Assembly: GCA_963843295.1 (NCBI GenBank)
Contig: CAWJJP010000005.1
Location: 230,159-294,158, forward strand
DNA from: an uncultured Gammaproteobacteria bacterium
Lineage (GTDB): Bacteria > Pseudomonadota > Gammaproteobacteria > Steroidobacterales > Steroidobacteraceae
Direction: 5' to 3'
Length of the DNA stretch: 64,000 bases
This document shows, in pieces, positions 3,564-23,832 of the stretch (the first letter of the stretch is position 1; the number at the start of each line of letters is the position of its first letter). The notes under the pieces were generated by a model. The model was not told where the DNA came from. It saw nothing but the letters and a program-made list of their open reading frames with translations, and did not search any database. The translations under genes were made by a program, and so were the position numbers.

Positions 3564-6398
3564 GTGCAAGAATGGCGCTCTCCTTGGGCGAGTACCGTTT
3601 GCATGGGGCCTGGGTCGACAAATTTCCGGGCGGGCTTGAGACGCACGTCGCGGCGCATTCTCTATCGGCTGGGCCGCCATCTTTCCTTCGGCATCGCGGG
3701 ACGTCTTGCGGTTTCCTTCACGGCCGTTGCCGTTCTGGCCGCTGCCGCCAACCTTTTCATCGAGCGCGGCGTTGCCGTTGTTCATACGACGCGTCTGGAG
3801 CGCGGTCTGTTCTCGCCGTTGCCCTCGCCCGTTGTACCGACGGAGACCGTCCCGCACGAGGCCGTCAAGCATCGCGTCGAGCCCGCCGCGCAGATCGCTG
3901 AGCCGGCCGCCGCACACGCAATCAAGAGCGAGCGGCTCATCGGTAGCATCGACCGCTACCAACACGCGATTCAGGCACGCGAGGCGGTCGACTCGGCCGG
4001 CACCGTTGATGAGCTGCAGGCGGCTGGCGGCGAACTCGAGGGCACCGCCGAGTATCTTCAAAAGGCGGCCGCTCCGCTCGCGGCGGCAGCGCGGCCGTTC
4101 CCGCAGAAGCTCGCCGCCTACATGGCGGAGGGCGGCAGCTTCGTGCAAGTCGCAGACACGCGCCGTATCGCGCTGCGCGAATACGCGCGGCGCCTGGATT
4201 CCATGGATACGCGCGTCAGCTCCTCGCTCGATCGGGCGTGGAAGATATTCGGCCGGGTCATTGCCCGCCAATCCCTGATGCAGATGCACAGCGACCTCGA
4301 GGAGCTGCACCACCGCTTCGCCGGCATCGGTGGGGCGGAGGCTTACGATGTCGGCACCATCGAGTCCCTCTCGGCCAGTGAGCTCGCCCTGGCCGCAACG
4401 TTCAACCGCAACGAGGGCGGCTTCAAACGATCCGAGGGCGCCGAGTGGGTCCGGCGGATGCGCGAGGACTTGTCGCAAATCGAATCGCTGCGCGAGGCGA
4501 TCACCGAAGCGGACGCCGAGTCGCGCGATGGCGCCAAGCGCTTCGCCGACTCGCGCGTGCAGCTCATCGGTGCAATACCGAAGATTCCGCCCAGTCCGGT
4601 CGTACGAGCGGCGGTCGAGCCGCCCATCGTCGCGCCTGCGGCGCCGAGTGCGGCGCCCATCGTGCCGGCGATCGCCTCCCCGGTCGCGGATGCCGTCATC
4701 ACCACGACGGTTCCCGACGAGGACTTGCACCGCACGACCATCGCGGCCATCACCGCGGCGGTGCTCACGGTATTGCTGGCGATTTCCGTGCTCACGGTCC
4801 GCAGCATCGTGCTGCCGGTGAACCGGCTGCTGGGTGCGACCAAGAAGCTCGCCGGCGGCGATGTCCATGTCCGGGTACCCCGCGGCGGCATCAAGGAACT
4901 CGATACGTTGGCGGTCGCATTCAATCGGATGGCGGCGCAGCTCGCGGCAGCGCGCAACATGACGCAAAACTATCGGCAACATCTCGAGACCCAGGTCGAG
5001 CAGCGCACGCGCCAGCTTCAATATCTGGCCGAACACGATCCTCTCACCATGCTGCCGAACCGGCGCCATTTCTTCGCCCTTCTGAGCAGTTCGCTGCAGC
5101 GCGCGGCGCTGCGCGGCAGCAGCGTTGCCGTCTTCTTCATTGACATCGACAATTTCAAGAACCTGAACGACAGCATGGGCCATGCCTTCGGCGACCGTGT
5201 GCTGGTGAGCGTCGCGCAGCGGCTGCAGGACACCGCCGGCGCCGCCGGCTTCGCAGCGCGCCTGGGCGGCGATGAATTCACGGTGGTGTATGAGGATGCC
5301 TCGCCGATGCACGTCGCCCACGACGCCGGCCGCAAGCTCGTCGAAGCGTTCCAGGAATCCCTGACGGTGGACGGACGCGACGTGAGTGTGAGCGTGAGCG
5401 TCGGTGCGAGCTTGTATCCGGATCACGAGCTGCGTCCCGAGGAGCTCCTGAGCGCGGCTGACGCAGCGCTTTTCCGAGCCAAGGCTCTCGGGCGCAGTCA
5501 GCTCGCGATCTACACGCCAGAACTGCTCGAAACCGCGACCCGGAAATTCACCACCGAGCAGGGTCTGCGGCGCGCGCTCGAGCACGACGAGTTCGAACTC
5601 GTGTTTCAACCCGAGGTGAGCCTGCAAACCCTGGAAGTCGGGTTGGTCGAGGCGCTCGTGCGCTGGCGCTTGCCGGATGGGCGGCGCGCCACTCCGGATG
5701 AGTTCCTTGCCGTGACCGAGGAATCCGGCCTGATCATCGAACTCGGGAATTGGGTGCTGCGGAAGGCGGTCGAGACCGCATCGATGTGGCATTACGGGCT
5801 CTGGCCCGGCGTCCGGATCGCCATCAACGTGTCCGCTCGCCAGCTGCTCGATCAGCGATTCGTCGATCGTGTTCAGACCTTGCTGAGGGAGTACAAGCTG
5901 CCGCCCCGCTGCATCGAATTCGAGCTGACCGAATCCGTGCTGCAGACGGGCCCCGCGACCATCGAGACGCTGCGCCGGCTCAGATCCCTCGACATTTCCA
6001 TCGCCCTGGACGATTTCGGGACCGGCTACTCATCGCTCGCGTCCCTGGAGCAGCTGCCGCTCTCGCGCATCAAGCTCGACCGCACGTTGATCGCGAATAT
6101 CGACACCAACATGCGCTCAGCCGCGGTCACCGCCGCCCTCATCAAGCTCTGCGACGGCCTCGGGCTCGAGGTGACCGCGGAAGGCGTCGAGCGCCCCGCG
6201 CAGTTCGCCTGCTTGGCGGGGAATCGCGCGATGTACGTGCAGGGTTACCTCATCGCACGGCCGATGGCGGCCGAAGATGTCCTGCGCGCCAACGGCGCCA
6301 TTCCGCAAATCATGCAGGACCTGTTGCTGTCCATCCCGACGGCGAGTGCACGGATCGAAAAACTGGATCCCCACCGCCGCCGCAGTTTTTCCTCGTAG
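3564..6398 (+). CDS. Membrane-bound GGDEF-EAL (diguanylate cyclase/phosphodiesterase) protein with HAMP
   Basis: TM segments, HAMP ('VNRLLGATKKLAGGDVHVRV'), GGDEF site 'RLGGDEFTVVY', EAL signature 'LVEALVRW', plus 'EFELTES' and 'DDFGTGYSSL'. The exact start (3564 or the nearby 'MGPGS') is uncertain. Confidence 0.9.
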   Translation: MQEWRSPWASTVCMGPGSTNFRAGLRRTSRRILYRLGRHLSFGIAGRLAVSFTAVAVLAAAANLFIERGVAVVHTTRLERGLFSPLPSPVVPTETVPHEAVKHRVEPAAQIAEPAAAHAIKSERLIGSIDRYQHAIQAREAVDSAGTVDELQAAGGELEGTAEYLQKAAAPLAAAARPFPQKLAAYMAEGGSFVQVADTRRIALREYARRLDSMDTRVSSSLDRAWKIFGRVIARQSLMQMHSDLEELHHRFAGIGGAEAYDVGTIESLSASELALAATFNRNEGGFKRSEGAEWVRRMREDLSQIESLREAITEADAESRDGAKRFADSRVQLIGAIPKIPPSPVVRAAVEPPIVAPAAPSAAPIVPAIASPVADAVITTTVPDEDLHRTTIAAITAAVLTVLLAISVLTVRSIVLPVNRLLGATKKLAGGDVHVRVPRGGIKELDTLAVAFNRMAAQLAAARNMTQNYRQHLETQVEQRTRQLQYLAEHDPLTMLPNRRHFFALLSSSLQRAALRGSSVAVFFIDIDNFKNLNDSMGHAFGDRVLVSVAQRLQDTAGAAGFAARLGGDEFTVVYEDASPMHVAHDAGRKLVEAFQESLTVDGRDVSVSVSVGASLYPDHELRPEELLSAADAALFRAKALGRSQLAIYTPELLETATRKFTTEQGLRRALEHDEFELVFQPEVSLQTLEVGLVEALVRWRLPDGRRATPDEFLAVTEESGLIIELGNWVLRKAVETASMWHYGLWPGVRIAINVSARQLLDQRFVDRVQTLLREYKLPPRCIEFELTESVLQTGPATIETLRRLRSLDISIALDDFGTGYSSLASLEQLPLSRIKLDRTLIANIDTNMRSAAVTAALIKLCDGLGLEVTAEGVERPAQFACLAGNRAMYVQGYLIARPMAAEDVLRANGAIPQIMQDLLLSIPTASARIEKLDPHRRRSFSS

Positions 6399-12407: not shown

Positions 12408-14357
12408 ATGGGAGCATCACAGCTTAGCGTAGAGTCCAATCCCTCGGACTTCATCGATTCACTGAACAAGTTCAGCAAGGAGCATCGCGCGCAGCGATGG
12501 GAAGGCAGCCTCAGCGATTTTTTGACGCACATTTTGCCGACCCGCCCCGCCGCCTTCGTGCGCACGAGCCACGAATACATTTGGGACATGCTGCTCTGGC
12601 ATGGTCGCAGCAGCGAAGGAGATGACACTCACAAGGCGCGCGAACTGTTCAAGCGCGAGTTGTATGGGGTGGATGAACCACTCGGCCGGGTCGTGGACTA
12701 TTTCAAGGCCGCGGCGGCGGGCTCGGACGTCGGGCGGCGGCTGCTGCTGCTGCTTGGGCCGCCCTCGGGCGGCAAGTCCACGCTGGCGATCCTGCTCAAA
12801 CGTGGGCTCGAAGAATACAGCCGCACCGACGAGGGCGCGTTGTATGCGATCAAAGGCTCACCTCTGCGCGAGTCGCCTTTGAACCTCATTCCGGCGAGCC
12901 TGCGGCCGGAGTTTCGCGAGACCTACGGAGTCGATATTTCGGGTGAGCTTTCCCCGTGGGCGCGGGATTATTTGGATCGCGAGTGCGACGGTGACTACCT
13001 GCGGGTGCCGGTCGAGCGCATTTTCCTATCGGAGGCGGCCCGCTGCGGAATCGGCACCTACGCGCCGCATGATCCGTCGACCGCCGATATCGCCGATCTG
13101 GTCGGCTCGGTGGACTTGTCCAAGGTGGCCCGGGTCGGCGACGAAGGCGATCCGCGCGCCTGGTCCTGGTCCGGCGCGGTATACGCCGCGAGCCGCGGCG
13201 TGCTCGAGATGATCGAGATTCTGAAGGTCAAGCGCGAGTTTCTCTATCTGCTGCTGACCATGACGCAGGAGAAGAACGTCAAAGTGGCGCGCTTTCCGCT
13301 CATCTATCTGGATGAGACGATTCTGGCGCACACCAACCTCGCGGAATTCAACCGCTTCCTTCAAGAGAAGGAGAATGAGGCGCTGCTCGATCGCATGGTG
13401 ATCATCAAGGTGCCCTATGCGCTGTCCTACAAGGACGAGGCGCGCATCTACAAGAAGTTGGTCTATGGCGCTCCGGCATTCCGCAATACGCACCTGGATC
13501 CCCATGTACTGCACCTTGCCGCCGTGTTTGCGATCCTCACCCGGCATCAGAAGCCGGAGCGCGAGGGGCTCGATCTGCCGAAGAAGGTGCGCATATTCGC
13601 CGGAGAAGCCGTCGAAGGGTTCTCCGAGACGGAGGCCGTGCGGCTGCGAGCGGAGGCCCCCGATGAGGGACTGTCGGGAGTGAGCCCGCGCTTCGTGATC
13701 AACGCGCTTTCCACCGCCATCACCCGCGGCAATGCGCGCAGCCTCACCAGCATGGAATTGTTGCTCGCCCTGAAGGATGCCATCGAGAGCGACGCGCGCA
13801 TCGACGCGAAGCAGAAGAAGCTCTGGTTCGATCACCTCGTCACGGCGCGCAAGGAATTCTACAATCGCTGGGTCAAAGAGGACGTGCACCGGGCGCTCTT
13901 CGCCTCGTTCCAGGACGAGGCGCAGCAACTTCTCGAGAAATATCTCGATGAGGTTGAGGCTGCGCTCGACCAGCGCAAGGTCACCGATCCGATGACGGGC
14001 GAGAACCGTGCGCCGGACGAACGATTCTTGCGCTCCGTGGAGGAAAAGATCAAGGTCTCCGAATCGGGAAAGCAATCGTTTCGGCAGGAAGTCATCCGCA
14101 AGGCCATGGTCGCGTTCAAGGCGGGGGAGAAATTCCGCCTCGCAAGCCACGCGCGGGTGCGCGAAGCGATCGAGCAGTATCTCTTCGAGGAGCGGCGCGA
14201 CGTGCTGCGTTTGGTCACGTCCACCGCGAGGCCCGACGATGAAGCCCGGCAAAAGATATCCGTCGTGCAGGAGCGGCTCGTCAAGGAATACGGCTACGAC
14301 GAACACAGCGCCCAGGAAGCACTGAACTACGTCACCACGCTCTTGTCACAGGAGTAG
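12408..14357 (+). CDS. prkA: PrkA/YeaG family serine protein kinase
   Basis: 649 aa. P-loop 'LLLLGPPSGGKST' and the characteristic PrkA N- and C-terminal blocks. SD GGAGG lies 6 nt upstream of the ATG. Confidence 0.93.
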   Translation: MGASQLSVESNPSDFIDSLNKFSKEHRAQRWEGSLSDFLTHILPTRPAAFVRTSHEYIWDMLLWHGRSSEGDDTHKARELFKRELYGVDEPLGRVVDYFKAAAAGSDVGRRLLLLLGPPSGGKSTLAILLKRGLEEYSRTDEGALYAIKGSPLRESPLNLIPASLRPEFRETYGVDISGELSPWARDYLDRECDGDYLRVPVERIFLSEAARCGIGTYAPHDPSTADIADLVGSVDLSKVARVGDEGDPRAWSWSGAVYAASRGVLEMIEILKVKREFLYLLLTMTQEKNVKVARFPLIYLDETILAHTNLAEFNRFLQEKENEALLDRMVIIKVPYALSYKDEARIYKKLVYGAPAFRNTHLDPHVLHLAAVFAILTRHQKPEREGLDLPKKVRIFAGEAVEGFSETEAVRLRAEAPDEGLSGVSPRFVINALSTAITRGNARSLTSMELLLALKDAIESDARIDAKQKKLWFDHLVTARKEFYNRWVKEDVHRALFASFQDEAQQLLEKYLDEVEAALDQRKVTDPMTGENRAPDERFLRSVEEKIKVSESGKQSFRQEVIRKAMVAFKAGEKFRLASHARVREAIEQYLFEERRDVLRLVTSTARPDDEARQKISVVQERLVKEYGYDEHSAQEALNYVTTLLSQE

Positions 14358-14397
14358 GTGAGGAGAGCATGACACGCACATTGGAACCGGGGCGCCG

Positions 14398-15585
14398 ATG
14401 AGCTCGGACTCGACAGGGGACGAGTCAAATACGCTTAATGGTTGGTATGAGCTGTTCTCGCGAGGCTCGCGCGACTGGCTCCGGCACAGTGAAAAGATAC
14501 GCGAGGCGGTGCGTGAGCACCTGCCGCAGATCGTGTCGGGCTCCGACATCATCAATGACGGCTCGCGCACGGTCAGGGTGCCGGTGCGCATGCTCGAGCA
14601 TTATCGCTTTCGGCTGTTGTCGACCGGCGAATCGCAGGGAGTCGGCCAGGGCAAGGCGAAACCCGGGGATGTGCTCGGCCAGGCGCAACCCGCCGGCGGG
14701 CCCGGGCAGAAAGGCGCTGGGGGCAGGGAGCGAGGCGGCACCGAGCTGATGCTCGAGTTCAAAGTGGACGATGTGATCGATTGGCTGTGGGAGGACCTGC
14801 AGCTGCCCAATCTTCAGCCGCGCGGCGGCGCGAGCGAAGAATCCGAGTGGAAGCGCGAGGGCTGGGATCGCCGCGGTGCGCGCTCGCGCCTCGACCGCCG
14901 CCGCTCTCTCAAGGAATCCGTGAAGCGGCGCGCGCTCGAGCCCGATTCGCCGGCTTTCACCGACGAAGATCTGCGTTTTCGGCAGCTCACCCGCCGCCGG
15001 CAGCCGGCGCTGCGCGCGGCCGTGTTTTTTCTTCTCGACGTCTCCGGCAGCATGTCCGAGCGCGATCGACAACTGGCGAAGACCTTTTTCTTCTGGGTGG
15101 CCGCCGGGCTGCGGCGCGAATACAAGGCGCTGGATATCGTGTTCGTCGCACACACCACCGACGCCTGGGAATTCAGCGAGGCGGATTTCTTCAAGACCAC
15201 CGGCAGCGGTGGCACCGTTGCCTCGGCCGGCCTCGCGAAAGTGCGCGAGATCATGCAGGCGCGCTTCGATCCGGCGACGTGCAATGTCTACCTCTTCTAC
15301 GCATCCGATGGCGACAACGCCGCGGACGACCGCGGGCCGGCCGCGCAGGAGCTCGAGGGCATCGCCAAGGTGGCGCGCTATGCGGGTTATGTGGAGATCT
15401 CAGCGGGAGCGCGCAGCACCCAGAGCGAAACGGTTCGCCTGTTTCAGGACGTCGCGGACGCAGGCCTGCCCTGCAGCCGCTATTCGATCACCGGACCGGA
15501 CGATGTTTCGGGTGCCGTGCGCCACTTCTTCACCACCGAGGCGCAGGCGGCCGCGCAATCCGATCCGACGGGAGCCGCTCCATGA
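14398..15585 (+). CDS. yeaH: YeaH/YhbH family protein (DUF444, vWA-like)
   Basis: 'WYELFSRGSRDWLRH..IREAV' N-terminus and 'FFLLDVSGSM' vWA/MIDAS motif. Conserved partner of PrkA. Confidence 0.9.
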   Translation: MSSDSTGDESNTLNGWYELFSRGSRDWLRHSEKIREAVREHLPQIVSGSDIINDGSRTVRVPVRMLEHYRFRLLSTGESQGVGQGKAKPGDVLGQAQPAGGPGQKGAGGRERGGTELMLEFKVDDVIDWLWEDLQLPNLQPRGGASEESEWKREGWDRRGARSRLDRRRSLKESVKRRALEPDSPAFTDEDLRFRQLTRRRQPALRAAVFFLLDVSGSMSERDRQLAKTFFFWVAAGLRREYKALDIVFVAHTTDAWEFSEADFFKTTGSGGTVASAGLAKVREIMQARFDPATCNVYLFYASDGDNAADDRGPAAQELEGIAKVARYAGYVEISAGARSTQSETVRLFQDVADAGLPCSRYSITGPDDVSGAVRHFFTTEAQAAAQSDPTGAAP

Positions 15586-16955
15586 AGGGCGATTGGCGCG
15601 CTCACGTCCCACAGCTCGAGGACCTGGCCCGCAAACTCGGACTCGACTGGTCGCCGGTCATCTTCGAGGCCGTTCCCGACAGCTTCATGACCGAAATAGC
15701 CGTGTACGGACTGCCGGTACGCATGCCGCACTGGTCGTTCGGGGCACGCTACATCTACCAGCTCTTGCAACGGCACATGGGCTATTCCCGCTTGTTCGAG
15801 GTCGTGTTCCCCGGCAATCCGGGTCGTGCGTACCTCGCCGCGAGCAACGGGCTCGCGGACAATGTGCTCGTGACCGCCCACGTGCTCGGGCATGCGGACT
15901 TTTCCAAGAACAACATGTTGTTCCGCCGCTGCCAGGAACAGGGCAACGCGCAGATCATCGAGCACGCGGCGAGCCACGCGCGTCAGATCGAGCGTGACAT
16001 CGAAGCCCACGGGTTCAAGGCGGTGGAGCAGGTGCTCGATGCGGCGCTGTCCCTCGAGCAATACATCGACCTCGATCAGCCGCTGCGCCGCGAGCTCTAC
16101 CCGGAGTACGCGCCGGCCGATGCGCATCCGCCGGACGATGCGTTTCGTTCCCGCTTCGCGACGCTCGATGCCGGAACCGGCACGGCTCCGCAAGCGCGTA
16201 AACTCCGCGCGCCGGTGCCGCCGCATCCGGAGCGGGATCTGCTCTGGTTCATAGCCTCGTATGCGCCGGAGATGGAGAGCTGGGAGCGGGACATCTTTCT
16301 CGCCGTGCGCGAGGAATCGTTCTACTTCTATCCGGTATTCGCCACGCAGATCATGAACGAGGGTTGGGCCTCCTACTGGCACGCGCGGCTGCTGCGCGAA
16401 GCGGATTTCATTCCGCAGGCGACCTACCTCGATGCGATCAAGTGCCACTCGGACGTCGTACGCCCGGTCGCCACGGGAGAACAGGTGGCGCTGACGATCA
16501 ACCCGTACCATCTCGGATTCACCTTGTGGGAGGAGATCGTCAAGAATTCCGGCATCGACGCGGCGCGCCAGGTCATGAAGGAGGATGACGACTTCAGTTT
16601 TGTGCGCAATCATCTCACGCGCGAGATCGCCGCCGAGATGGGGTTGTTCCGATATCAACGCCAGCAGAACGGGCCGATCAAAGTCGTCGAGGCGGACGTC
16701 GGCGATCTGCACGAAAGCTTGCTGCTCGAGAAATACAACTTCGGCGCCCCGCGCGTCCTGGTCTCCGAAGTACGTCACGACGGCACGCTCGTGCTCGAGC
16801 ACGACAGCCGGCTCGACGGCCGGGGGCTCGACGCGGACCGGGCACGCAGGGTCCTCGAGTATGTGAAGCACGTCTGGCGGCGCCCCGTGCTGCTCAAGAC
16901 GGTCGATGCCGCGGCGGCGACCGTGGAGTTTTCCGCGGACTCTGCCGCCGCCTGA
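15582..16955 (+). CDS. spoVR: SpoVR/YcgB family protein
   Basis: ATG at 15582 overlaps the yeaH stop (ATGA). 'GLPVRMPHWSFG', 'VTAHVLGHADF', 'QIMNEGWASYWH' are SpoVR hallmarks. The track ORF (14781..) is an artefactual 5' extension. Confidence 0.9.
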   Translation: MKGDWRAHVPQLEDLARKLGLDWSPVIFEAVPDSFMTEIAVYGLPVRMPHWSFGARYIYQLLQRHMGYSRLFEVVFPGNPGRAYLAASNGLADNVLVTAHVLGHADFSKNNMLFRRCQEQGNAQIIEHAASHARQIERDIEAHGFKAVEQVLDAALSLEQYIDLDQPLRRELYPEYAPADAHPPDDAFRSRFATLDAGTGTAPQARKLRAPVPPHPERDLLWFIASYAPEMESWERDIFLAVREESFYFYPVFATQIMNEGWASYWHARLLREADFIPQATYLDAIKCHSDVVRPVATGEQVALTINPYHLGFTLWEEIVKNSGIDAARQVMKEDDDFSFVRNHLTREIAAEMGLFRYQRQQNGPIKVVEADVGDLHESLLLEKYNFGAPRVLVSEVRHDGTLVLEHDSRLDGRGLDADRARRVLEYVKHVWRRPVLLKTVDAAAATVEFSADSAAA

Positions 16956-16982: not shown

Positions 16983-17429
16983 CTACTCGAGGCAAACGAC
17001 CAGCCTTGCCGAGTGGGTGCGCCAATTGATGGGGATCACATAGGAACGTGAGTGCGGCGCCACGACCAGCTCCGGCTCGTTGGCGATGACCGTCGGAACC
17101 GATATGAGGAAGTTCTTGCCGAAATCGCGGCGCGCGTTGCCGGAAATCGTGTTGGCCACTTCGCCGACGAGATCCCTGATGGTCTCCTCGCTCGAGTCGG
17201 TCTCCTGCATCCGCATCAGCAGCACCATCAGCATGGCGCGGCGCGCAGTGAAGTAGACAATTCCCTTGCGCGCACCGGAAATGCCGATGACGCCGGTGTA
17301 CTCGTAGCAGCCGGGCTTGCCGTCGGTCACCAGATACGGTGAGCCGACGCTCGCGGCCTGCTGCGCGGAAACCTCGAAGTAGTTCGTCGTGCCTTCGATG
17401 AAAGTGCGAATTTCGGCTTCTTTCAACAT
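16983..17429 (-). CDS. CheX-like (CheC/CheX family) chemotaxis phosphatase domain protein
   Basis: 148 aa. 'YTGVIGISGARKGIVYF' and 'LVGEVANTISGNARRDFG...ISVPTVI' fit the CheX pattern. Start shares 1 nt with the CheY-like stop (TGATG). Confidence 0.75.
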   Translation of the reverse strand: MLKEAEIRTFIEGTTNYFEVSAQQAASVGSPYLVTDGKPGCYEYTGVIGISGARKGIVYFTARRAMLMVLLMRMQETDSSEETIRDLVGEVANTISGNARRDFGKNFLISVPTVIANEPELVVAPHSRSYVIPINWRTHSARLVVCLE

Positions 17430-17821
17430 CAGGTTTCCGACAGCAACTCTTCCAGCGCGTCATTGAGTTGGCGATCGGTGAACGGCTTGCACAGGAAGCC
17501 GTTGGCCCCCTTCTCGATGGCTTCGACTGCGGTGGCCTTGTCCGCCAGCGCCGACACCACCAGGATCAAGACCCGCGGGTTGAGCGCCACCAGCTGCTCG
17601 ACACAGGAGATGCCATCCATTTCCGGCATTGTCAGATCCATGGTCACGACATCCGGCCGGGTACGCCGGAACAGATCCACCGCCTCGCGGCCATTGGCGG
17701 CGGCTCCCACCACCTCGAGGCGCGCGATCTGCTGCGAGCGCTCGATGCGTCGTCGAATGATATTCGAATCATCGACGATCATGAGCTTGAGCGGGGTTTG
17801 CAGGCGGGTATTCGTATCCAT
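17429..17821 (-). CDS. Single-domain CheY-like response regulator
   Basis: Canonical receiver: 'LMIVDDS', 'VVTMDLTMPEMDG', 'LVVSA', 'GANGFLCKPF'. Start abuts the upstream kinase stop (0-nt gap). Confidence 0.9.
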   Translation of the reverse strand: MDTNTRLQTPLKLMIVDDSNIIRRRIERSQQIARLEVVGAAANGREAVDLFRRTRPDVVTMDLTMPEMDGISCVEQLVALNPRVLILVVSALADKATAVEAIEKGANGFLCKPFTDRQLNDALEELLSET

Positions 17822-20032
17822 CTAAGCGGCCACGGTGTCGTCCACGGGCTTGCGGGGGGCCGGCAAGGTCATCGTCAAGCGCGTGAATTTTCCCACCGAC
17901 GTGGCAACGCCGACGCGCCCGCCGATTTGCTGCATGAGATCCGCCATGAGATTCATACCGACGCCGCGACCCGCGTCCTTGGTGGCATGCTCGACCGTCG
18001 AGAACCCGGGTCGAAACAGCAGCGAGAACGTCTGCTTCGCGTCGAGGCGCGGTGCCTGCTCCGCGGTGATGAAGCCTTTTTGGAGCGCCACTTCCTTGAT
18101 GCGTTCGGGCAGCAGGCCGCGCCCATCGTCCTCGACGCTGAGTTTGTAGCCTCCCTCGCCCAACTCCTTGAATACCAGCCGCACCGCCCCGGCCGACGGC
18201 TTTCCCGCCGACTCACGTGCCGCCGGAGCTTCGATGCCATGGACGATGGCATTGCGTACGGCTTGGATGGCGATGTCCTTGACGATCCGCCGATATTCCT
18301 CCGGTACCGCGTCCAAGCCCGAGCAATGCAAGGCGGCCTGTTTGCCGCTCTCCGCGGCCACCCGTGCCGTGAGTTGCTCCAGCCCGGTCTGCAACCCCCC
18401 ATCGGCTGCGCCGAGGACCGGCGTACCCTGCTCCGCCGCGCCCCCGGCGGCGGGCGCCGGCGCAAACGCGATCTCCGTCTGCGGCACTTGAAACTTCGAC
18501 AGCCGCGACACCAATTCGCTGACCGACTGCAGGTGCGTCAGCAAGTCGTCGAGCTTGATGACGAGCGGCAAGAAGTCGTTGCCCGACAATCCGGGCCTGT
18601 CGCGCAGCAGCTTCAGGTCGTCCTCAAAGGAGTGGGCCCGGCTCTCGATCGAGGACAGCCCGAGCGCGGCCGCTTCTCCCTTGACCGAGTGCGCCTGCCG
18701 GAACAGCGTATCGAGTTTCTTGCGGAACGCGCCCTCCTCCCGCGCCGGCTCGCGCAGCACCGCGTTGATCATTTTCATGGCCGCATTCGAATCGTTCAAG
18801 AACGAGGCAAGCTGGTCCGGATCGATGTGCAGAATGCCGAGCAGCGTATCGACCTGCGCCTGCGCCTGGCTCTGAGAATTCTGCAGCTCGCGGGCGAGCT
18901 CCACCCGGGAACTCACGTCCGAGACGGACACCAGGATGTGCGTGATCCTGCCATCGACCCGTACCCGGTGGAATTCGAATTGGAGAAAGCGCGTTTCGAA
19001 TTTGCCGCCGCCGGCATCCAGATGCACCTCGACCTCACCGAGAGGATTGATCGACTTGACCAGCTTCTCGTTGGTCCGCTCCAACCAAAGAACCGTGACG
19101 AATTTCAATGCGGTATCGAGGGTCTTCTCCGACACGATGTTCTTCAGCAGGCTCTCGAAGGAGAGTCCCGCGATGTCGCGGCGTTGAAACAGGGTTTCCA
19201 GTGCGGTCGAGAAGGTCGTGCCGATGACGAGATTGCGGTCGAGCAGGAACAAACCGTCCTTGACGGTGCGGAGTATGTCCGTCGTTTGCTGGCGGGCCTC
19301 GCGCAGGCTCGCATCCTGACGCTGCCTGGCGCCGATCATCAACAGCACCAGCAGCACCAATACTGCGGCGATCAGCAGCCCCATGAACAGCACCAGCTGC
19401 AGCTCCTTCGCGGCCTGCACGTTGCTCGACTGCAGCCGGGCGCTGATTTGCAACAGCAGCGCGTCGAGTTCGGGGAGCACGTGATGGCTCGTGCGCGCCG
19501 CGGCGGCGATGTCACGCTCCAATTGGCGCCCGTTGTCATTGAGCGCGGTGCCAGTGGACTCGTTATCCTTGTAGGGCACGCCGTTGAAGTTCACCAGCGG
19601 CTCGAGCACCGCGCGTTCGCGCGCCCAAAGCTCGTGCAATTGCGCCGCGCTCCTGCCGGCGATCGACTCGGCGGTGGCGCCGGTGTCCCCGGCCAGAGCG
19701 AGCCAGCTCGCGGGACGCGGCGCGGTCATGGCGGGCAGGGCCGCATCGATCTTCCCAACCGCATCGCGAAGCTGATCGGCGGCCTCCTGCAGATAACCCC
19801 GATTGTTCAACCGGTCGCGCATGACCTCCAACGAGGACTGCAGCAACGTCGGATAGCGCTGTTGGTCGGCGACCAACTTCAGGGCCGCCGTGCTCTCCAC
19901 GAGCTCGCTTGCGAGTTCGATTCCCGGAATGAGCACCGTCGTCAGGAAGGTCATGCCGAGAACGGCGACCAGCGCGCCGAGGCCGACGGGCGAGAAGGCA
20001 GGAATGGAGGATTTCAACGAGCGCCAATTCAT
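17822..20032 (-). CDS. Membrane-anchored CheA-like histidine kinase (TM-periplasmic-TM, Hpt, CheA-type ATPase; no CheW-like P5 domain)
   Basis: Two TM segments flank a helical region of about 170 aa. Hpt 'FRQAHSVKGEAAALG'. ATPase boxes 'VRNAIVHGIE', 'VEDDGRGL', 'LLFRPGFST', 'GRGVGMNLM'. The protein ends about 40 aa after the last box, so there is no room for a P5 domain. Confidence 0.85.
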   Translation of the reverse strand: MNWRSLKSSIPAFSPVGLGALVAVLGMTFLTTVLIPGIELASELVESTAALKLVADQQRYPTLLQSSLEVMRDRLNNRGYLQEAADQLRDAVGKIDAALPAMTAPRPASWLALAGDTGATAESIAGRSAAQLHELWARERAVLEPLVNFNGVPYKDNESTGTALNDNGRQLERDIAAAARTSHHVLPELDALLLQISARLQSSNVQAAKELQLVLFMGLLIAAVLVLLVLLMIGARQRQDASLREARQQTTDILRTVKDGLFLLDRNLVIGTTFSTALETLFQRRDIAGLSFESLLKNIVSEKTLDTALKFVTVLWLERTNEKLVKSINPLGEVEVHLDAGGGKFETRFLQFEFHRVRVDGRITHILVSVSDVSSRVELARELQNSQSQAQAQVDTLLGILHIDPDQLASFLNDSNAAMKMINAVLREPAREEGAFRKKLDTLFRQAHSVKGEAAALGLSSIESRAHSFEDDLKLLRDRPGLSGNDFLPLVIKLDDLLTHLQSVSELVSRLSKFQVPQTEIAFAPAPAAGGAAEQGTPVLGAADGGLQTGLEQLTARVAAESGKQAALHCSGLDAVPEEYRRIVKDIAIQAVRNAIVHGIEAPAARESAGKPSAGAVRLVFKELGEGGYKLSVEDDGRGLLPERIKEVALQKGFITAEQAPRLDAKQTFSLLFRPGFSTVEHATKDAGRGVGMNLMADLMQQIGGRVGVATSVGKFTRLTMTLPAPRKPVDDTVAA

Positions 20033-20062
20033 GACTCAAAGCTCCTTGGAAAGTTGCTGCCA

Positions 20063-22159
20063 TCAGCCCGACAGGTGAAATATGACGCGCAACTTCGTCG
20101 TGACCGAAACCGCTTTTCCACTCTGCAGCACGGGCTTGTAGCGCAAGCGGGAAACTGCACTGGTGGCCGCCGCATCGAAGATGCCCGGCGGACTCGTATG
20201 AACCACCTTGATGTCGGTGACGGTGCCTTTCGCGGTGACCGTATAGGCCACCTGGACCTCACCCTCGATTTGATTCCCGAGCGCCTTCGCCGGATAGTCC
20301 ACACTGAGCTTCTTGGTGCGCGTGAGGGTCGCTTCGGGCACTTCCTGCGGCACATCGGCGGCCGACAGCGCAGCGGCTCGGATTCGCTCGGTCAACGCAT
20401 TCGACTCTTTGGAGTCGCCGAGGACGCCGGCCATCTGCAGCAGCGTGTCGGCTTTCACATAGTCACCGCCATCGATCGCCGTTCGGGCCCGGTCGAGAAT
20501 TTGCGCCTGCACCGCGCTCGATATCTGCGGCAAGCCGGCATTGTGCGGATCCGCCGCGCGCAGCTTGTTCACGTAGTACAGCGCGCTATCGTCATCGGGT
20601 TCGAGCAAATTGCCCTGTGCGAGCCGCGCTCGCGCCAGATCGAGCAGCTGCGGTTCCTGTTTTTCATGCGTCGGCTGTACGCGCGCAGCGGCCAGTTGGC
20701 GCTGCAGAGTCGCAACCGCCTGGGGTGGCGCGCTCAGGCTGCGCAGCGCCGCCAGAAACCGGTCCGCATCGAGGATACGGTGCTGGTCGATGGCGCCCTG
20801 CGCGGCCTGCGTGAGTCGATTGAGCAATTCCCGGTATTGCGGCTGAACCGCGGCGGCGCTCGCGCCCGCTTGCCGCGCCTGCTCGAGATAGTAGACGGCG
20901 TTGTCGTTGTGCGGATCGAGCAGATGATCCTGCTCCAAACGGCTGTCGAGCAGCGCCAACAGGCGTGCGACGTCGCCCTCCGCGCGGTGTCGGCGCAGCT
21001 CGTCGCGCAGTTGATTCGTCTTGGCACTCCCGAGCGTCTTCGACCGCGCCGCTTCGTCGATCAGCTGCGCAGCCCGGTCGAAGTTTTGCGCGTTGATGGC
21101 AGCCTGGATCTCCGCGGGCCCGAGCTCGGCCCGCAAAGCCGCGATTCGTCCATCGAGCGGCACCAGGCGGCCGTCGTCCGGCGCAATGCTGCGGGCGGTC
21201 TCGAGGGCCTGCAGCGCCACATCGAACTTTCTCTCGTCCAACGCGGACTGCACCCGTGCAATGAGAATTTCGAGCAGCCGCTGCATCCCCTGGTGTGCCT
21301 CACCGTTCGCAGGATCCAGCATCAGGGCATCGCGATAGAGCGTCAGGGCACTGCCCTCCGCCGGCTCGATGAAGTGCCGGTCGAGCATCGCCTGCTGCGC
21401 CTTCTCGATGAGAAGGTCGACCTTTTCCTCGCTGGCGGAGCTGCCGCCGGCAGCGGGGCTCGCGCTGGATGAGGGCGCGGATACCGCAGGAGCCTGCGAC
21501 GTGGAACCATTCGGTGCCGGCGTTGGCCTGACCGCGGACCCGGCCGGCGGGGTGGCGGTGCGAAAGTGGATGAACGCCGCGGCAGCCGCGATCAGCACAG
21601 CGGCCAGGCTCGCTGCGGTGACCCAGGGTATTTTCGAGGCCGTCGGCGCGCGCGGCGGAGGAGCAGAGCCGTCAGCGTCGTCAGAGCCGTCAGCGTCGTC
21701 AGAGCCGAGCAGCACGATGCGGGTATTGAGTTCCTCTTGAGCCCTCGTGAGCGCTTCGGTCAAGGCGGCCGGATCGACCGGCAAGGTCACGAGTGAGGCT
21801 ATATGCCGGTGTTGCACCGCCACGGTCCACGTCGCCGTGCTGTCAGCGGTATCGAGCGCAATGATGAGGCAGCGCGCGCACAGCGACTGCAGCCGTGACA
21901 ATTCCGCTGCGGGTTCGGCATGGTCGCGGGCATCCCACAGAACGATTGCCGGATCCGGGCCCGTGGTACCGAGCAACTCGTCGATCGAATCGAGCTGCCT
22001 CGGGGCGAAGTCAGCGCGGAGATGCGGGCCGATCTGCTGCCACAGCTCATCGTCCGCCGTGACCAGCAAAACCGGGAGCTTTTTTTTGTACGCTGACGCA
22101 GTCGACTCGCGACCGATCGCCGGCGCGGCAGGCTCCTGCTTTCTTGCTGTCTTCGTCAA
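20063..22159 (-). CDS. Receiver-like domain / TM / helical-repeat / TonB C-terminal domain protein
   Basis: TTG start with GGAG 7 nt upstream. 'PVLLVTADDE..AIVLWDARD' is receiver-like, with TM 'WVTAASLAAVLIAAAAAFI'. Three 'LL[DE]P..D.A[LV]YY' repeats. C-terminus 'YPAKALGNQIEGEVQVAYTV..GTVTDIKVV' is a TonB-C fold signature. Confidence 0.75.
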   Translation of the reverse strand: MTKTARKQEPAAPAIGRESTASAYKKKLPVLLVTADDELWQQIGPHLRADFAPRQLDSIDELLGTTGPDPAIVLWDARDHAEPAAELSRLQSLCARCLIIALDTADSTATWTVAVQHRHIASLVTLPVDPAALTEALTRAQEELNTRIVLLGSDDADGSDDADGSAPPPRAPTASKIPWVTAASLAAVLIAAAAAFIHFRTATPPAGSAVRPTPAPNGSTSQAPAVSAPSSSASPAAGGSSASEEKVDLLIEKAQQAMLDRHFIEPAEGSALTLYRDALMLDPANGEAHQGMQRLLEILIARVQSALDERKFDVALQALETARSIAPDDGRLVPLDGRIAALRAELGPAEIQAAINAQNFDRAAQLIDEAARSKTLGSAKTNQLRDELRRHRAEGDVARLLALLDSRLEQDHLLDPHNDNAVYYLEQARQAGASAAAVQPQYRELLNRLTQAAQGAIDQHRILDADRFLAALRSLSAPPQAVATLQRQLAAARVQPTHEKQEPQLLDLARARLAQGNLLEPDDDSALYYVNKLRAADPHNAGLPQISSAVQAQILDRARTAIDGGDYVKADTLLQMAGVLGDSKESNALTERIRAAALSAADVPQEVPEATLTRTKKLSVDYPAKALGNQIEGEVQVAYTVTAKGTVTDIKVVHTSPPGIFDAAATSAVSRLRYKPVLQSGKAVSVTTKLRVIFHLSG
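21665..21707 (-). repeat. 18-nt in-frame tandem duplication (2.4 copies) encoding GSDDAD-GSDDAD-GS
   Basis: 'agagccgtcagcgtcgtc' occurs at 21665-21682 and again at 21683-21700, followed by a partial copy 'agagccg'. It lies in the linker between the receiver-like domain and the TM segment. Confidence 0.9.
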
Positions 22160-22232
22160 GCACGCACTCCGGCAATCGGATCATTCTGTTGGGGCCCATT
22201 CCATCTTATGGAAACAAGGATTCCGCGTGCTG

Positions 22233-22249
22233 GTGTGGATCACATTTTG
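22233..22249 (-). promoter_or_regulatory. Shared 17-nt motif, copy 1 (plus strand GTGTGGATCACATTTTG), upstream of the TonB-C/CheA-like operon
   Basis: Identical at 16 of 17 positions to 23816-23832. Centre lies about 82 nt upstream of the TTG at 22159. Contains TGTG-N3-CACA dyad symmetry. Confidence 0.5.
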
Positions 22250-22358
22250 TGTGATGCGGATCGTCCGAGCCTGCGGCGTCCGCGCCGGGAACCTGCAAAT
22301 TGGGAACCAGGTCGCAGTCGAGGCTCGAGGTACTCCGGGAGCCTCGAAATGGGCATAT

Positions 22359-23666
22359 TCAGGGTGCCGCAGCTCGCTTCGGCCTCGCTGCGCCGACACC
22401 ATCGAACGCCTCGAGAAATTGCGCGGCGGATGGGAAGCGGTCCTGGGGATTTTTTTCCAGCAGGCGATTGATCAGCGGTTGATAGCGCATCAACGATACG
22501 GGCAGCGGCGGCACCGGGGAGGAGCGATGGCCCTCGAAGATTTCCGCCAGCGTCTTGCCGCGGAATGGCAGCACGCCCGAGAGCATCTCGTAGAAAATCA
22601 CGCCCAAACTGTAGAGATCGGCGCGTTGATCGGTCTTGTTGCCCTGAATTTGCTCTGGGCAGACATAGTAGGGGGTTCCGGTCATCAGATCCGAACGCGA
22701 TAGATCATGCGCCACGAGCTGCGCGCGGGCGGATCCGAAATCGATCAAGACCACGCGATTGTCGCCGGTCAACATGAGATTCGACGGCTTCAAGTCACGA
22801 TGCACGATCCCGGCGGCATGCACCACTTGCAGCGCTTCGCCGATTTGCCGGACATAGTTGAGCGCATCAACTTCACTCACGGGATTCTTCAAGCGCTCGC
22901 GCATGCTGCCGCAGGGGAAATACTCGAGCGCGAGATACAAATACTCGGGTGTGATGCCGAAATCGATGACGTCGGCTATCGATCGATGGTTCAAGCTGGA
23001 AAGAATTTCGCATTCCCGGGCGAAACGCTGGCGATCCTCTTCGGACACGCTCGCATGACCGTCGATCGCCTGAACCTTGAGCGCCACCGGTTGCGCCAAA
23101 TCGTCGTTGCGTGCGAGATACACCGTGGCCGCCGACGAGTGGGCGATCCTCTTCAGAATCTGATAGCCGGCCACGTCGGGCAATCCTTGATCGGCCGGCC
23201 TGGGCTTCGCGGGGGCGCCGCGCGGTGGATTGAGAAATGGCTCCAGCGTCGTCGCGAGTTCGGCGAGGTCGACCGAATGGATCGGCCAGTAGTCGACCGC
23301 CCCCGCTTTGATTGCACGGGCCGCCGAACGCTCGTCACCCTGGCGCGCGAAGATGAAAATCGGCAGTCGTGGAGCTCGGGCGTGCAAGCGTGCAACTTGC
23401 GCTAGCGGGTCGCCCGCCCCCCGTTGCATGAATTCGACGATGAACAGTACCGCGGCATAGCCGCCGAGTTGGTCGATGGACAGACCGTCGAGTCCCGACC
23501 CGGTAACCGTGTCGGCATCGACCTTGACGGGTGCGCGGCGCACAAGGTCGGCCAGCTTCAAGCGCAGATCGAGATCGTCATGAACGACCAGGCAGCGGCG
23601 GCCGGCGCGTTCGAGGTGCGCGGTGGGGCTCTGGTCTCGGACCGCTTTGTTTGCCAACGGCGTCAT
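22359..23666 (-). CDS. Hanks-type Ser/Thr protein kinase with N-terminal receiver-like domain
   Basis: Kinase motifs 'VALKV', 'HRDLKPSNLML', 'LIDFGSA', 'GTPYYVCPE'. The N-terminal ~125 aa are receiver-like ('CLVVHDD', 'IKAGAVDYW'). ATG at 23666 preferred; the ORF could start at 23765. Confidence 0.85.
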   Translation of the reverse strand: MTPLANKAVRDQSPTAHLERAGRRCLVVHDDLDLRLKLADLVRRAPVKVDADTVTGSGLDGLSIDQLGGYAAVLFIVEFMQRGAGDPLAQVARLHARAPRLPIFIFARQGDERSAARAIKAGAVDYWPIHSVDLAELATTLEPFLNPPRGAPAKPRPADQGLPDVAGYQILKRIAHSSAATVYLARNDDLAQPVALKVQAIDGHASVSEEDRQRFARECEILSSLNHRSIADVIDFGITPEYLYLALEYFPCGSMRERLKNPVSEVDALNYVRQIGEALQVVHAAGIVHRDLKPSNLMLTGDNRVVLIDFGSARAQLVAHDLSRSDLMTGTPYYVCPEQIQGNKTDQRADLYSLGVIFYEMLSGVLPFRGKTLAEIFEGHRSSPVPPLPVSLMRYQPLINRLLEKNPQDRFPSAAQFLEAFDGVGAARPKRAAAP

Positions 23667-23815
23667 CGGGATCTCACCATAAAAGTACGCGGCTTCCTCA
23701 TCGAAGCGGCGCCGGGACAGCGGACAGGTGGCGCCCGCGCCGGGCGTGCCAGGCCTCTTCCGCATGGTCGGCGCAACGTCTTGTAGCGTCAGGGAATTTC
23801 AGGTCGCGTGGGCGT

Positions 23816-23832
23816 GTGTGAATCACATTTTG
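23816..23832 (-). promoter_or_regulatory. Shared 17-nt motif, copy 2 (plus strand GTGTGAATCACATTTTG), in the kinase / lctP divergent region
   Basis: Matches 22233-22249 at 16 of 17 positions. Weaker similarity (tctt.t.g, aggaattcc-like, gcgtg blocks) continues about 40 nt toward lower coordinates at both sites. Confidence 0.5.

Follow-up and report, generated by a model that had tools for sequence, protein, structure and literature searches.

Organization of the locus

The stretch analyzed here (the window) comprises 64,000 nucleotides of contig CAWJJP010000005.1, from an uncultured gammaproteobacterium of the family Steroidobacteraceae. Its minus strand carries five co-directional genes, called here g1 to g5 in the direction of transcription, which encode a Ser/Thr kinase (STK) with a receiver-like N-terminus, a TonB-like membrane protein, a membrane sensor kinase with an Hpt domain, a CheY-like receiver and a CheX-type phosphatase (Table 1). 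We tentatively interpret the five genes as a single CheW-independent envelope-signalling operon, built on the three-gene phosphorelay formed by g3, g4 and g5 (the triad).

A first-pass annotation of this DNA had proposed five open reading frames (ORFs) on the minus strand, and all were found where it placed them; g2, g3, g4 and g5 are spaced 30, 0 and -1 nt apart, as it stated, and 199 nt lie between g1 and g2. Nearly all the details of its domain description held, with refinements for g3 and g2. It had also reported that the window has no gene for a methyl-accepting chemotaxis protein (MCP), CheW, CheB or CheR and no flagellar or pilus gene, in agreement with our results: the MCP signature motif is absent, and a scan of 20 other large ORFs brought up no che, fla or pil gene.

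Table 1. Genes, domains and sites of the five-gene module (window positions; aa, amino acids; TM, transmembrane; AF2, AlphaFold 2)
Feature	Position	Strand	Residues	Description	Evidence or diagnostic residues
g1	22359..23666	(-)	435 aa	Soluble Ser/Thr kinase: pseudo-receiver and Hanks domain	ORF list, Pfam, 76 orthologues
g1 pseudo-receiver	23217..23615	(-)	aa 18-150		D30 and D/E31 retained; E78 for phospho-Asp
g1 kinase domain	22407..23168	(-)			K197, HRDLKPSN (289-296), DFG (309-311) and GTPYYVCPE invariant
g1-g2 intergenic region	22160..22358	(-)	199 nt	Candidate promoter/operator	
Palindrome 1	22239-22255			Within g1-g2 gap	ATCACA-N5-TGTGAT
Palindrome 2	22199-22213			Within g1-g2 gap	TTCCAT-AAG-ATGGAA
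g2	20063..22159	(-)	698 aa	Bitopic TonB-like protein, TTG start	ORF list, Pfam, models
g2 receiver-fold domain	21710..22081	(-)	aa 27-150		AF2 model, Foldseek, 70 orthologues
g2 TM helix	21560..21625	(-)	aa 179-200	Poorly conserved	
g2 helical region	20360..21442	(-)	aa 240-600	TPR-type	AF2 model, TPR superhelix matches, Pfam TPR
g2 TonB C-terminal domain	20072..20320	(-)	aa 614-696		Signature Y622-P623...A626...E632-G633-x-V635
g3	17822..20032	(-)	736 aa	Membrane sensor Hpt-kinase	ORF list, Pfam, PDB alignment
g3 periplasmic sensor	19415..19909	(-)	aa 42-206	Divergent PilJ/NarX-type four-helix bundle	Between TM1 and TM2
g3 cytoplasmic domain	18818..19315	(-)	aa 240-405	Conserved	Family signature ERTNEKLV, INPLGEVE
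g3 Hpt/P1	18527..18811	(-)	aa 408-502	Phospho-His H448 (codon 18689-18691)	Motif FRQAHSVKGEAAALG
g3 P4	17855..18370	(-)	aa 555-726	CheA-type ATP-binding	phmmer to CheA 6s1k
g4	17429..17821	(-)	130 aa	Single-domain CheY-like receiver	Response_reg 2e-27
g5	16983..17429	(-)	148 aa	CheX-type phosphatase	CheX 1.4e-19

The membrane Hpt-kinase g3

The g3 protein matched the Pfam families Hpt (4.5e-8) and HATPase_c (1.5e-12), with no match to CheW or to H-kinase_dim (the P3 domain) at E<0.1; the CheA models of NCBIfam matched it far below threshold only. In a phmmer comparison with the Protein Data Bank (PDB), its C-terminal part aligned to the P4 domain of E. coli CheA (6s1k, residues 340-508; E 1.3e-23), and the motif FRQAHSVKGEAAALG aligns to the His48 segment of E. 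coli CheA P1, H448 being the counterpart of His48. H448, K451, G452 and E453 are invariant, and so are the four boxes of the kinase (His, N, G1 and G2). The protein ends 10 residues after P4 and thus has no P5, and the spacer between P1 and P4 is about 55 residues long and largely low-complexity, leaving no place for P2 or P3. The proposal of a membrane kinase with an Hpt domain and a CheA-type ATPase, devoid of P2 and of a CheW-like P5, therefore stands, to which we add that P3 is absent too.

Hydropathy places TM segments at aa 9-41 and 207-239, flanking a periplasmic domain of about 165 residues. This domain has no direct Pfam match itself, and its profiles yielded marginal matches only in the PDB; it is homologous to the periplasmic domain of distant g3 relatives (hhalign 96.7%, E 4.4e-10), 20 out of 41 of which match PF13675 (PilJ/NarX-type), which we take to be a generic nitrate-sensor-type bundle. 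A link to type IV pili, suggested by the name PilJ, was ruled out, as no locus contains a pilus gene. The cytoplasmic domain, some 160 residues between TM2 and P1, has a mean column identity of 81%; it gave weak PAS-type matches in the PDB (E about 0.1-0.2) and may be PAS-like.

All surveyed CheAs contain Hpt, P3, P4 and P5, whereas a sensor domain is not part of CheA (PMC10782961). Judged by that census g3 is not a CheA, because it lacks two of the four domains (P3 and P5) and carries its own sensor domain, although its sequence indicates that it uses CheA chemistry. A truncated or mis-called CheA was also considered and ruled out, since hundreds of full-length relatives end alike. Exhaustively searching database representatives (50% identity clusters) for such relatives returned 1,382 clusters at E<=1e-30; all of the best 150 among the 1,382 have the layout TM2, cytoplasmic domain, Hpt and P4 in about 700 aa, and no CheW domain was found in 41 sampled distant relatives. 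On this evidence the sensor Hpt-kinases to which g3 belongs form a large family, comprising at least 150 clusters at 50% identity.

The CheY-like g4 and the CheX-like g5

The annotation of g4 as a canonical CheY-like receiver proved right: it scores 95.9 bits against Response_reg, and its D17, D18, D62, S90 and K112, equivalent to D12, D13, D57, T87 and K109 of CheY, are invariant in 151 sequences. Likewise, g5 matches CheX with 70.4 bits (cut-off 27) and has an intact D86-x3-E90-x2-N93 motif, invariant in 149 sequences, in keeping with the CheX-like phosphatase proposed before. The D-x3-E-x2-N active site is the one reportedly defined for CheX by Park and colleagues in 2004. In distant genomes having only the triad, CheY is 54-76% identical to g4 (54-66% in L081-L084) versus 32-38% for the kinase, a conservation which suggests a conserved CheY target.

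The TonB-like protein g2

From its N-terminus, g2 is composed of a cytoplasmic receiver fold, a TM helix, a Pro/Ser/Ala linker, a periplasmic TPR solenoid and a TonB C-terminal domain (CTD). The receiver-like domain had been proposed by the first-pass annotation and was borne out by AlphaFold, though sequence profiles miss it: Pfam Response_reg was detected in none of 41 orthologues, and hhalign against the CheY family gave a probability of 1%, not significant. The domain-only AF2 model (pLDDT 84.8, pTM 0.81) displays five beta-alpha units, and nearly all of the 50 best PDB matches listed by Foldseek are receivers or pseudo-receivers, the top one being the DctD receiver (E 4e-6, TM-score 0.74) and others including CpaE, AmiR, RitR and CheY. 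Foldseek matches of the full-length model were dominated by the TonB CTD and the TPR region, and the fold was settled from the domain-only model; we consider the receiver fold of this domain confirmed by modelling.

In an alignment of 70 orthologues the acidic pocket, which would hold Mg2+ and the phospho-Asp, has two acidic positions following beta1, D36 in 68 of 68 sequences and Asp (46) or Glu (16) at position 37, and D76 again in 68 of 68; D76-A-R78 is invariant, within a W-D-A-R motif whose Asp closes beta3. The Thr site is occupied by D103 (Ala in the four-gene clade) and the Lys site by L/V126, followed by P127. Both the acidic pocket and the D-[AT]-R motif are retained down to about 25-30% identity, and in the TonB-C proteins of the four-gene clade the N-domain is likewise receiver-like and shows T-x-D-D, D-[AT]-R and L-P.

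The region following the linker, which is disordered in the full-length AF2 model, is all-helical there and matches TPR superhelices by Foldseek; TPR families of Pfam were found in about 25 of the 41 orthologues, and g2 itself has three repeats of the type L-x-E-P-x2-D-S-A-x-Y-Y. The C-terminal domain matches TonB_C (Pfam, 6e-19) and, in profile comparisons, TonB CTDs of the PDB (E down to 4.6e-17); it superposes on the TonB CTDs of the FoxA, BtuB and FhuA complexes with TM-scores of 0.8-0.9, and the signature Y-P...A...E-G-x-V is invariant in the g2 family. Hydropathy, AF2 and Foldseek thus agree with the single TM segment, helical repeats and TonB CTD described earlier.

A TM S-x3-H motif (His20) is the hallmark of TonB coupling to ExbB/ExbD. 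Neither a conserved His or Ser nor S-x3-H was found in the TM helix of g2 among 49-70 close and wider family members, and no other part of the protein is as poorly conserved as this helix. Because the motif is missing, g2 probably does not act as a classical energy transducer; moreover, its spacer is a short Pro/Ser/Ala linker plus a solenoid of about 360 residues, in place of a Pro-rich rod. Its sequence points to a protein which is TonB-like at the tip and not a classical TonB.

The Ser/Thr kinase g1

The start of the 435-aa form of g1 is backed by the alignment of 76 orthologues, over a longer ORF reaching 23765; no TM segment is present. Pfam detects Pkinase (2.9e-47), with a sub-threshold stretch of Response_reg. 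The catalytic Lys, the HRD-x-K-x2-N loop and DFG are invariant in the 76 orthologues, confirming the Hanks-type kinase that had been claimed; it looks active and is predicted to be catalytically competent. At the site of the Gly-rich loop (aa 167-189, window 23100-23168) the sequence is I-A-x-S-S-A-A-[ST]-V-Y, and none of the 76 orthologues has a Gly there.

The N-terminal domain aligns to the g4 CheY family over 119 columns (hhalign probability 83%, E 8.6e-6), placing E78 opposite D62. Position 78 is Glu in 69 and Gln in 4 of the 76 orthologues, so that both the alignment columns and hhalign identify E78 as the Glu noticed earlier at the phospho-Asp site. The Thr site is A107 and the Lys-Pro site W127-P128, both conserved in the same 76 sequences. 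On these residues the N-terminus of g1 is an aspartate-less pseudo-receiver.

Conservation and assembly of the module

Scanning genomes with the g3 kinase identified 131 species-level genomes, all of them Steroidobacteraceae, Nevskiaceae or unclassified gammaproteobacterial metagenome-assembled genomes (MAGs), from which 80 loci were kept for analysis. By tblastn the five genes are present and co-directional in essentially every long-enough locus of the 80 species, and the co-conservation expected of the operon holds; clustering of the ORFs revealed no further gene in more than 22 of the 80 loci. The order TonBC-STK-kinase-CheY-CheX was seen in 55 loci and the window's order, STK-TonBC-kinase-CheY-CheX, in 8, the STK gene lying inside the operon in most species; junctions are mostly of -4 to +13 nt. 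No exbB, exbD or TonB-dependent receptor gene was found conserved near the module. Domains, catalytic residues and gene set are what is conserved across it, the phosphotransfer steps being what we infer.

Flanking genes vary between genomes. In one locus otherwise of the five-gene type only a short STK-domain fragment lies between the TonB-C and kinase genes (L147:7628-8000), where the STK may be decaying.

Beyond these genomes, kinase, receiver and CheX occur alone in Marin-type, Cellvibrio fontiphilus and one further cultured-type genome. In another Steroidobacteraceae genome (L086) a 587-aa REC-like-TPR-TonB_C gene, whose homology was checked, abuts the kinase gene with no STK, and an unclassified MAG (L085) has the triad with a receiver-STK and no TonB-C. 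Upstream of the latter triad (L085:4560-7088) there are two tandem, paralogous receiver-STK genes, 33-39% identical to g1 and without phospho-Asp, together with a MiaE gene.

A metagenome scan (alignment A7) added 80 loci, and the 45 having at least 3.8 kb upstream (scan and look-ups) were typed: 8 contain the triad only, 1 the STK and triad, 22 the TonB-C gene and triad, and 14 all five genes. Among the metagenome loci, those with at least 46% kinase identity to g3 always have five genes, those with 39-45% mostly have TonB-C plus triad, and those below 39% mostly the triad only. The grade of the module thus follows the divergence of the kinase from g3, which indicates the order triad, then TonB-like protein, then STK; by this ordering the TonB-C partner is the older addition. 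The triad is widespread in Gammaproteobacteria, TonB-C plus triad characterizes a larger soil clade, and the STK joined in the subclade of the window. Independent recruitment of two accessory genes beside the same triad argues for functional coupling.

Surroundings of the module

The g1-g2 gap contains two perfect palindromes (Table 1) and is 91% identical to that of the locus L002, whose kinase is 97% identical to g3; in other species the STK and TonB-C genes mostly abut or overlap, versus 199 nt in the window. Scans of the gap and locus for Rfam families and for promoter and terminator consensus gave no useful match. In this lineage the gap may serve g2-g5 as promoter or operator.

Other large ORFs of the window encode an OmpR-type two-component pair, a lactate permease, an RND pump and a sigma-54 activator. 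The window also carries a HAMP-GGDEF-EAL protein and two TonB-dependent receptors (coordinates listed, 3564-6398 (+), 37819-40230 (-) and 59965-62058 (-)); none of these envelope and signalling genes is conserved with the module, and each of the two receptors lies more than 15 kb from it. Adjoining the module, and convergent with its CheX end, is a PrkA/YeaH(DUF444)/SpoVR stress-kinase trio (window 12408-16955 (+)). In four-gene loci such as L097 (L097:686-5220 (-)) the trio, identified by Pfam, is divergent from the TonB-C start. Roughly 18 of 80 and roughly 12 of 86 loci carry it, and it is therefore not universal; its adjacency may represent inherited synteny or a functional link.

Proposed mechanism and alternatives

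In our tentative reading, g3 would detect a periplasmic cue directly via its PilJ/NarX-type bundle, without MCP or CheW, and would autophosphorylate His448 of P1/Hpt using its CheA-type ATPase; the phosphoryl group would pass to Asp62 of g4, and g5 would dephosphorylate g4. A His448 to Asp62 relay of this kind, reset by CheX and run by a kinase sensing the periplasm directly, is a prediction firmly supported by the conserved residues. Since kinases of the CheA type lack an intrinsic phosphatase activity, CheX is expected to reset the relay quickly.

As for the accessory genes, the older partner g2 would be an atypical response-regulator-like protein anchored in the membrane and a second acceptor of P1 phosphoryl groups, at Asp76, competing with CheY; its state would pass via the TM helix to the periplasmic TPR arm and change the contact of the TonB CTD with the TonB boxes of outer-membrane (OM) receptors, signalling thus being directed inside-out. 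The younger partner g1, with its receiver locked by Glu, probably docks on the same relay and would add Ser/Thr phosphorylation as an output. A role of g2 as phospho-acceptor is favored because its acidic pocket is strictly kept whereas the dead receiver of g1 lost its Asp, and a likeness to response regulators because the gene for g2 immediately precedes that for the kinase, as in classical pairs of response regulator and histidine kinase. [quoted passage not shown] In its most specific form, g2 would be a response regulator with periplasmic output, phosphorylation of Asp76 switching the TPR-TonB_C arm at TonB boxes and the pseudo-receiver STK forming a second branch; this we regard as possible but rather doubtful. 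Lacking the ExbBD-coupling motif, g2 might then serve as a regulated TonB decoy or tether. The phosphorylation of Asp76, the signalling direction and the targets of the TonB CTD and STK are all points that we infer.

Several observations weigh against this interpretation. The g2 receiver lacks the Thr and Lys, is seen by neither Pfam nor hhalign, and may never be phosphorylated; its poorly conserved TM helix would be unexpected if a conformational signal were transmitted through it; and the surroundings of the module show no conserved gene for ExbB, ExbD or a TonB-dependent receptor. Where the triad occurs alone, CheY must itself be the output, and its role with CheX as a partial sink is an assumption. 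Finally, the Gly-less loop of g1 leaves some doubt on its kinase activity.

One alternative is docking independent of phosphorylation, where CheY~P would be the only phospho-output and would bind the receiver folds of g2 and/or g1, as receiver-receiver heterodimers or in competition with P1, thereby switching the TonB-like protein and the STK on or off. Neither the g1 nor the g2 receiver has the Thr and Lys, Response_reg profiles do not see g2, pseudo-receivers such as CpaE, AmiR and RitR are among its structural neighbors, and CheY, necessarily the output of triad-only genomes, shows there, relative to the kinase, the high conservation typical of several binding partners. Nevertheless, retention of D36, D37 and D76 in g2 at about 25-30% identity is difficult to account for unless metal or phosphoryl chemistry is involved, and the g1 receiver, being phospho-dead, did lose its Asp; we thus hold docking to be unlikely, if worth keeping in view. 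An outside-in flow of information is improbable in our estimation: here the g2 arm would report the state of OM receptors through exposure of TonB boxes, and its receiver fold would steer the kinase in place of MCP and CheW, as in FecA-FecR. The absence from g3 of P5 and P3, the usual receptor-coupling domains of CheA, would suit such a co-sensor, as would the g2 gene abutting that of the kinase and a canonical TonB CTD in a protein which, without the ExbBD-coupling motif, looks like a binder and not a motor component; but the kinase has its own periplasmic sensor and works without a TonB-like partner in many genomes, an input adaptor needs no phospho-acceptor pocket, and no receptor gene is conserved close by.

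Alternatively, g2 could be an additional TonB paralogue, energizing particular OM transporters with the help of the housekeeping ExbB/ExbD motor and merely gated by the relay and STK. Its CTD is nearest to true TonBs (Vibrio TonB2, E 4.6e-17, and also those of P. aeruginosa and E. coli), the five-gene clade has a Pro-Trp motif just ahead of the TM helix, and the genome has TonB-dependent receptors; this notwithstanding, a TM helix which is the least conserved segment and in which neither a His nor S-x3-H is conserved, a 360-residue TPR solenoid replacing the rigid Pro-rich spacer and the lack of exbBD genes nearby make such an ordinary, if regulated, TonB quite improbable. A chance neighborhood, with the STK and TonB-like genes merely adjoining an unrelated two-component operon, would agree with the 199 nt separating g1 from g2 and with the differing flanks, yet the five genes stay together in about 75 species despite the order swap and the flank changes, their junctions overlap in most species, and STK and TonB-C homologues each adjoin distant triads independently. 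This co-conservation led us to reject chance, which we consider hardly credible.

Comparison with known systems and significance

With CheA, g3 shares P1 with the phospho-His motif H-x2-K-G-E, P4 (E 1e-23 to E. coli and T. maritima CheA) and the CheY and CheX partners; it differs by the loss of P2, P3 and P5, by its two TM segments, its own PilJ/NarX-type sensor and an extra cytoplasmic domain, and by having no MCP or CheW partner. Similarly, g4 and g5 resemble the CheY/CheX of Borrelia and Thermotoga in the single-domain receiver with its five residues, the D-x3-E-x2-N motif and the adjacent, overlapping genes, but have no flagellar or chemoreceptor context. The g2 protein has the CTD signature and fold and the bitopic, N-in topology of TonB (E. 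coli, P. aeruginosa, Vibrio TonB2), from which it is set apart by a 150-residue receiver-fold N-domain, the TPR solenoid, the lack of S-x3-H and of exbBD linkage, and its place in a phosphorelay operon.

Plant PRR/TOC1, with Glu for Asp, and FrzS are aspartate-less receivers. Like pseudo-receivers, g1 keeps the fold with Glu at the phospho-site, and the g2 model is close to CpaE, AmiR and RitR although g2 keeps its Asp; the known cases differ in that g1 is fused to a Hanks kinase and g2 to a TM-TPR-TonB_C unit. In FecA-FecR-FecI a bitopic protein links an OM TonB-dependent receptor to a cytoplasmic regulator, a likeness to g2 that exists only if signalling were outside-in; the domains are wholly different, and sigma and anti-sigma factors play no part here. 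GltJ/AgmX of Myxococcus xanthus shares with g2 the bitopic arrangement of cytoplasmic regulatory switch, TM helix and periplasmic TonB-C, and a cytoplasmic signalling protein steers a trans-envelope machine through it (PMC11135422). Its cytoplasmic module, however, is a ZnR-GYF unit binding MglA-GTP and AglZ and not a receiver, it belongs to the Agl-Glt gliding machinery, and there is no sequence relation to g2 beyond the TonB-C domain.

No published description of the kinase class, of the receiver-TonB fusion or of the operon was found in the full-text literature searched, which covers few subscription journals; the impression that this is not a described pathway accordingly holds within that literature, and there the operon appears to be a novel assembly of known types, a two-component/chemosensory relay and the TonB family. 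Whether it also embodies a new output principle we consider a possibility, more doubtful than not. If g2 is indeed a regulator with periplasmic output, it would represent a new class of two-component output and a new use of the TonB CTD.

The family of g3 represents a CheA core (P1 and P4) detached from the CheW/receptor array and given its own membrane sensor, which standard CheA definitions exclude. In Steroidobacteraceae that are abundant in soil, operon structure and fusion to a receiver fold tie this relay to a TonB CTD. The tie points to phospho-control of the contact between inner and outer membrane, an output of which the literature searched gave no example for two-component systems. 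The module would also be a natural case of cross-talk between STKs and two-component systems via a Glu-for-Asp pseudo-receiver; all its parts are small, soluble or bitopic, and the predictions are thus testable in vitro.

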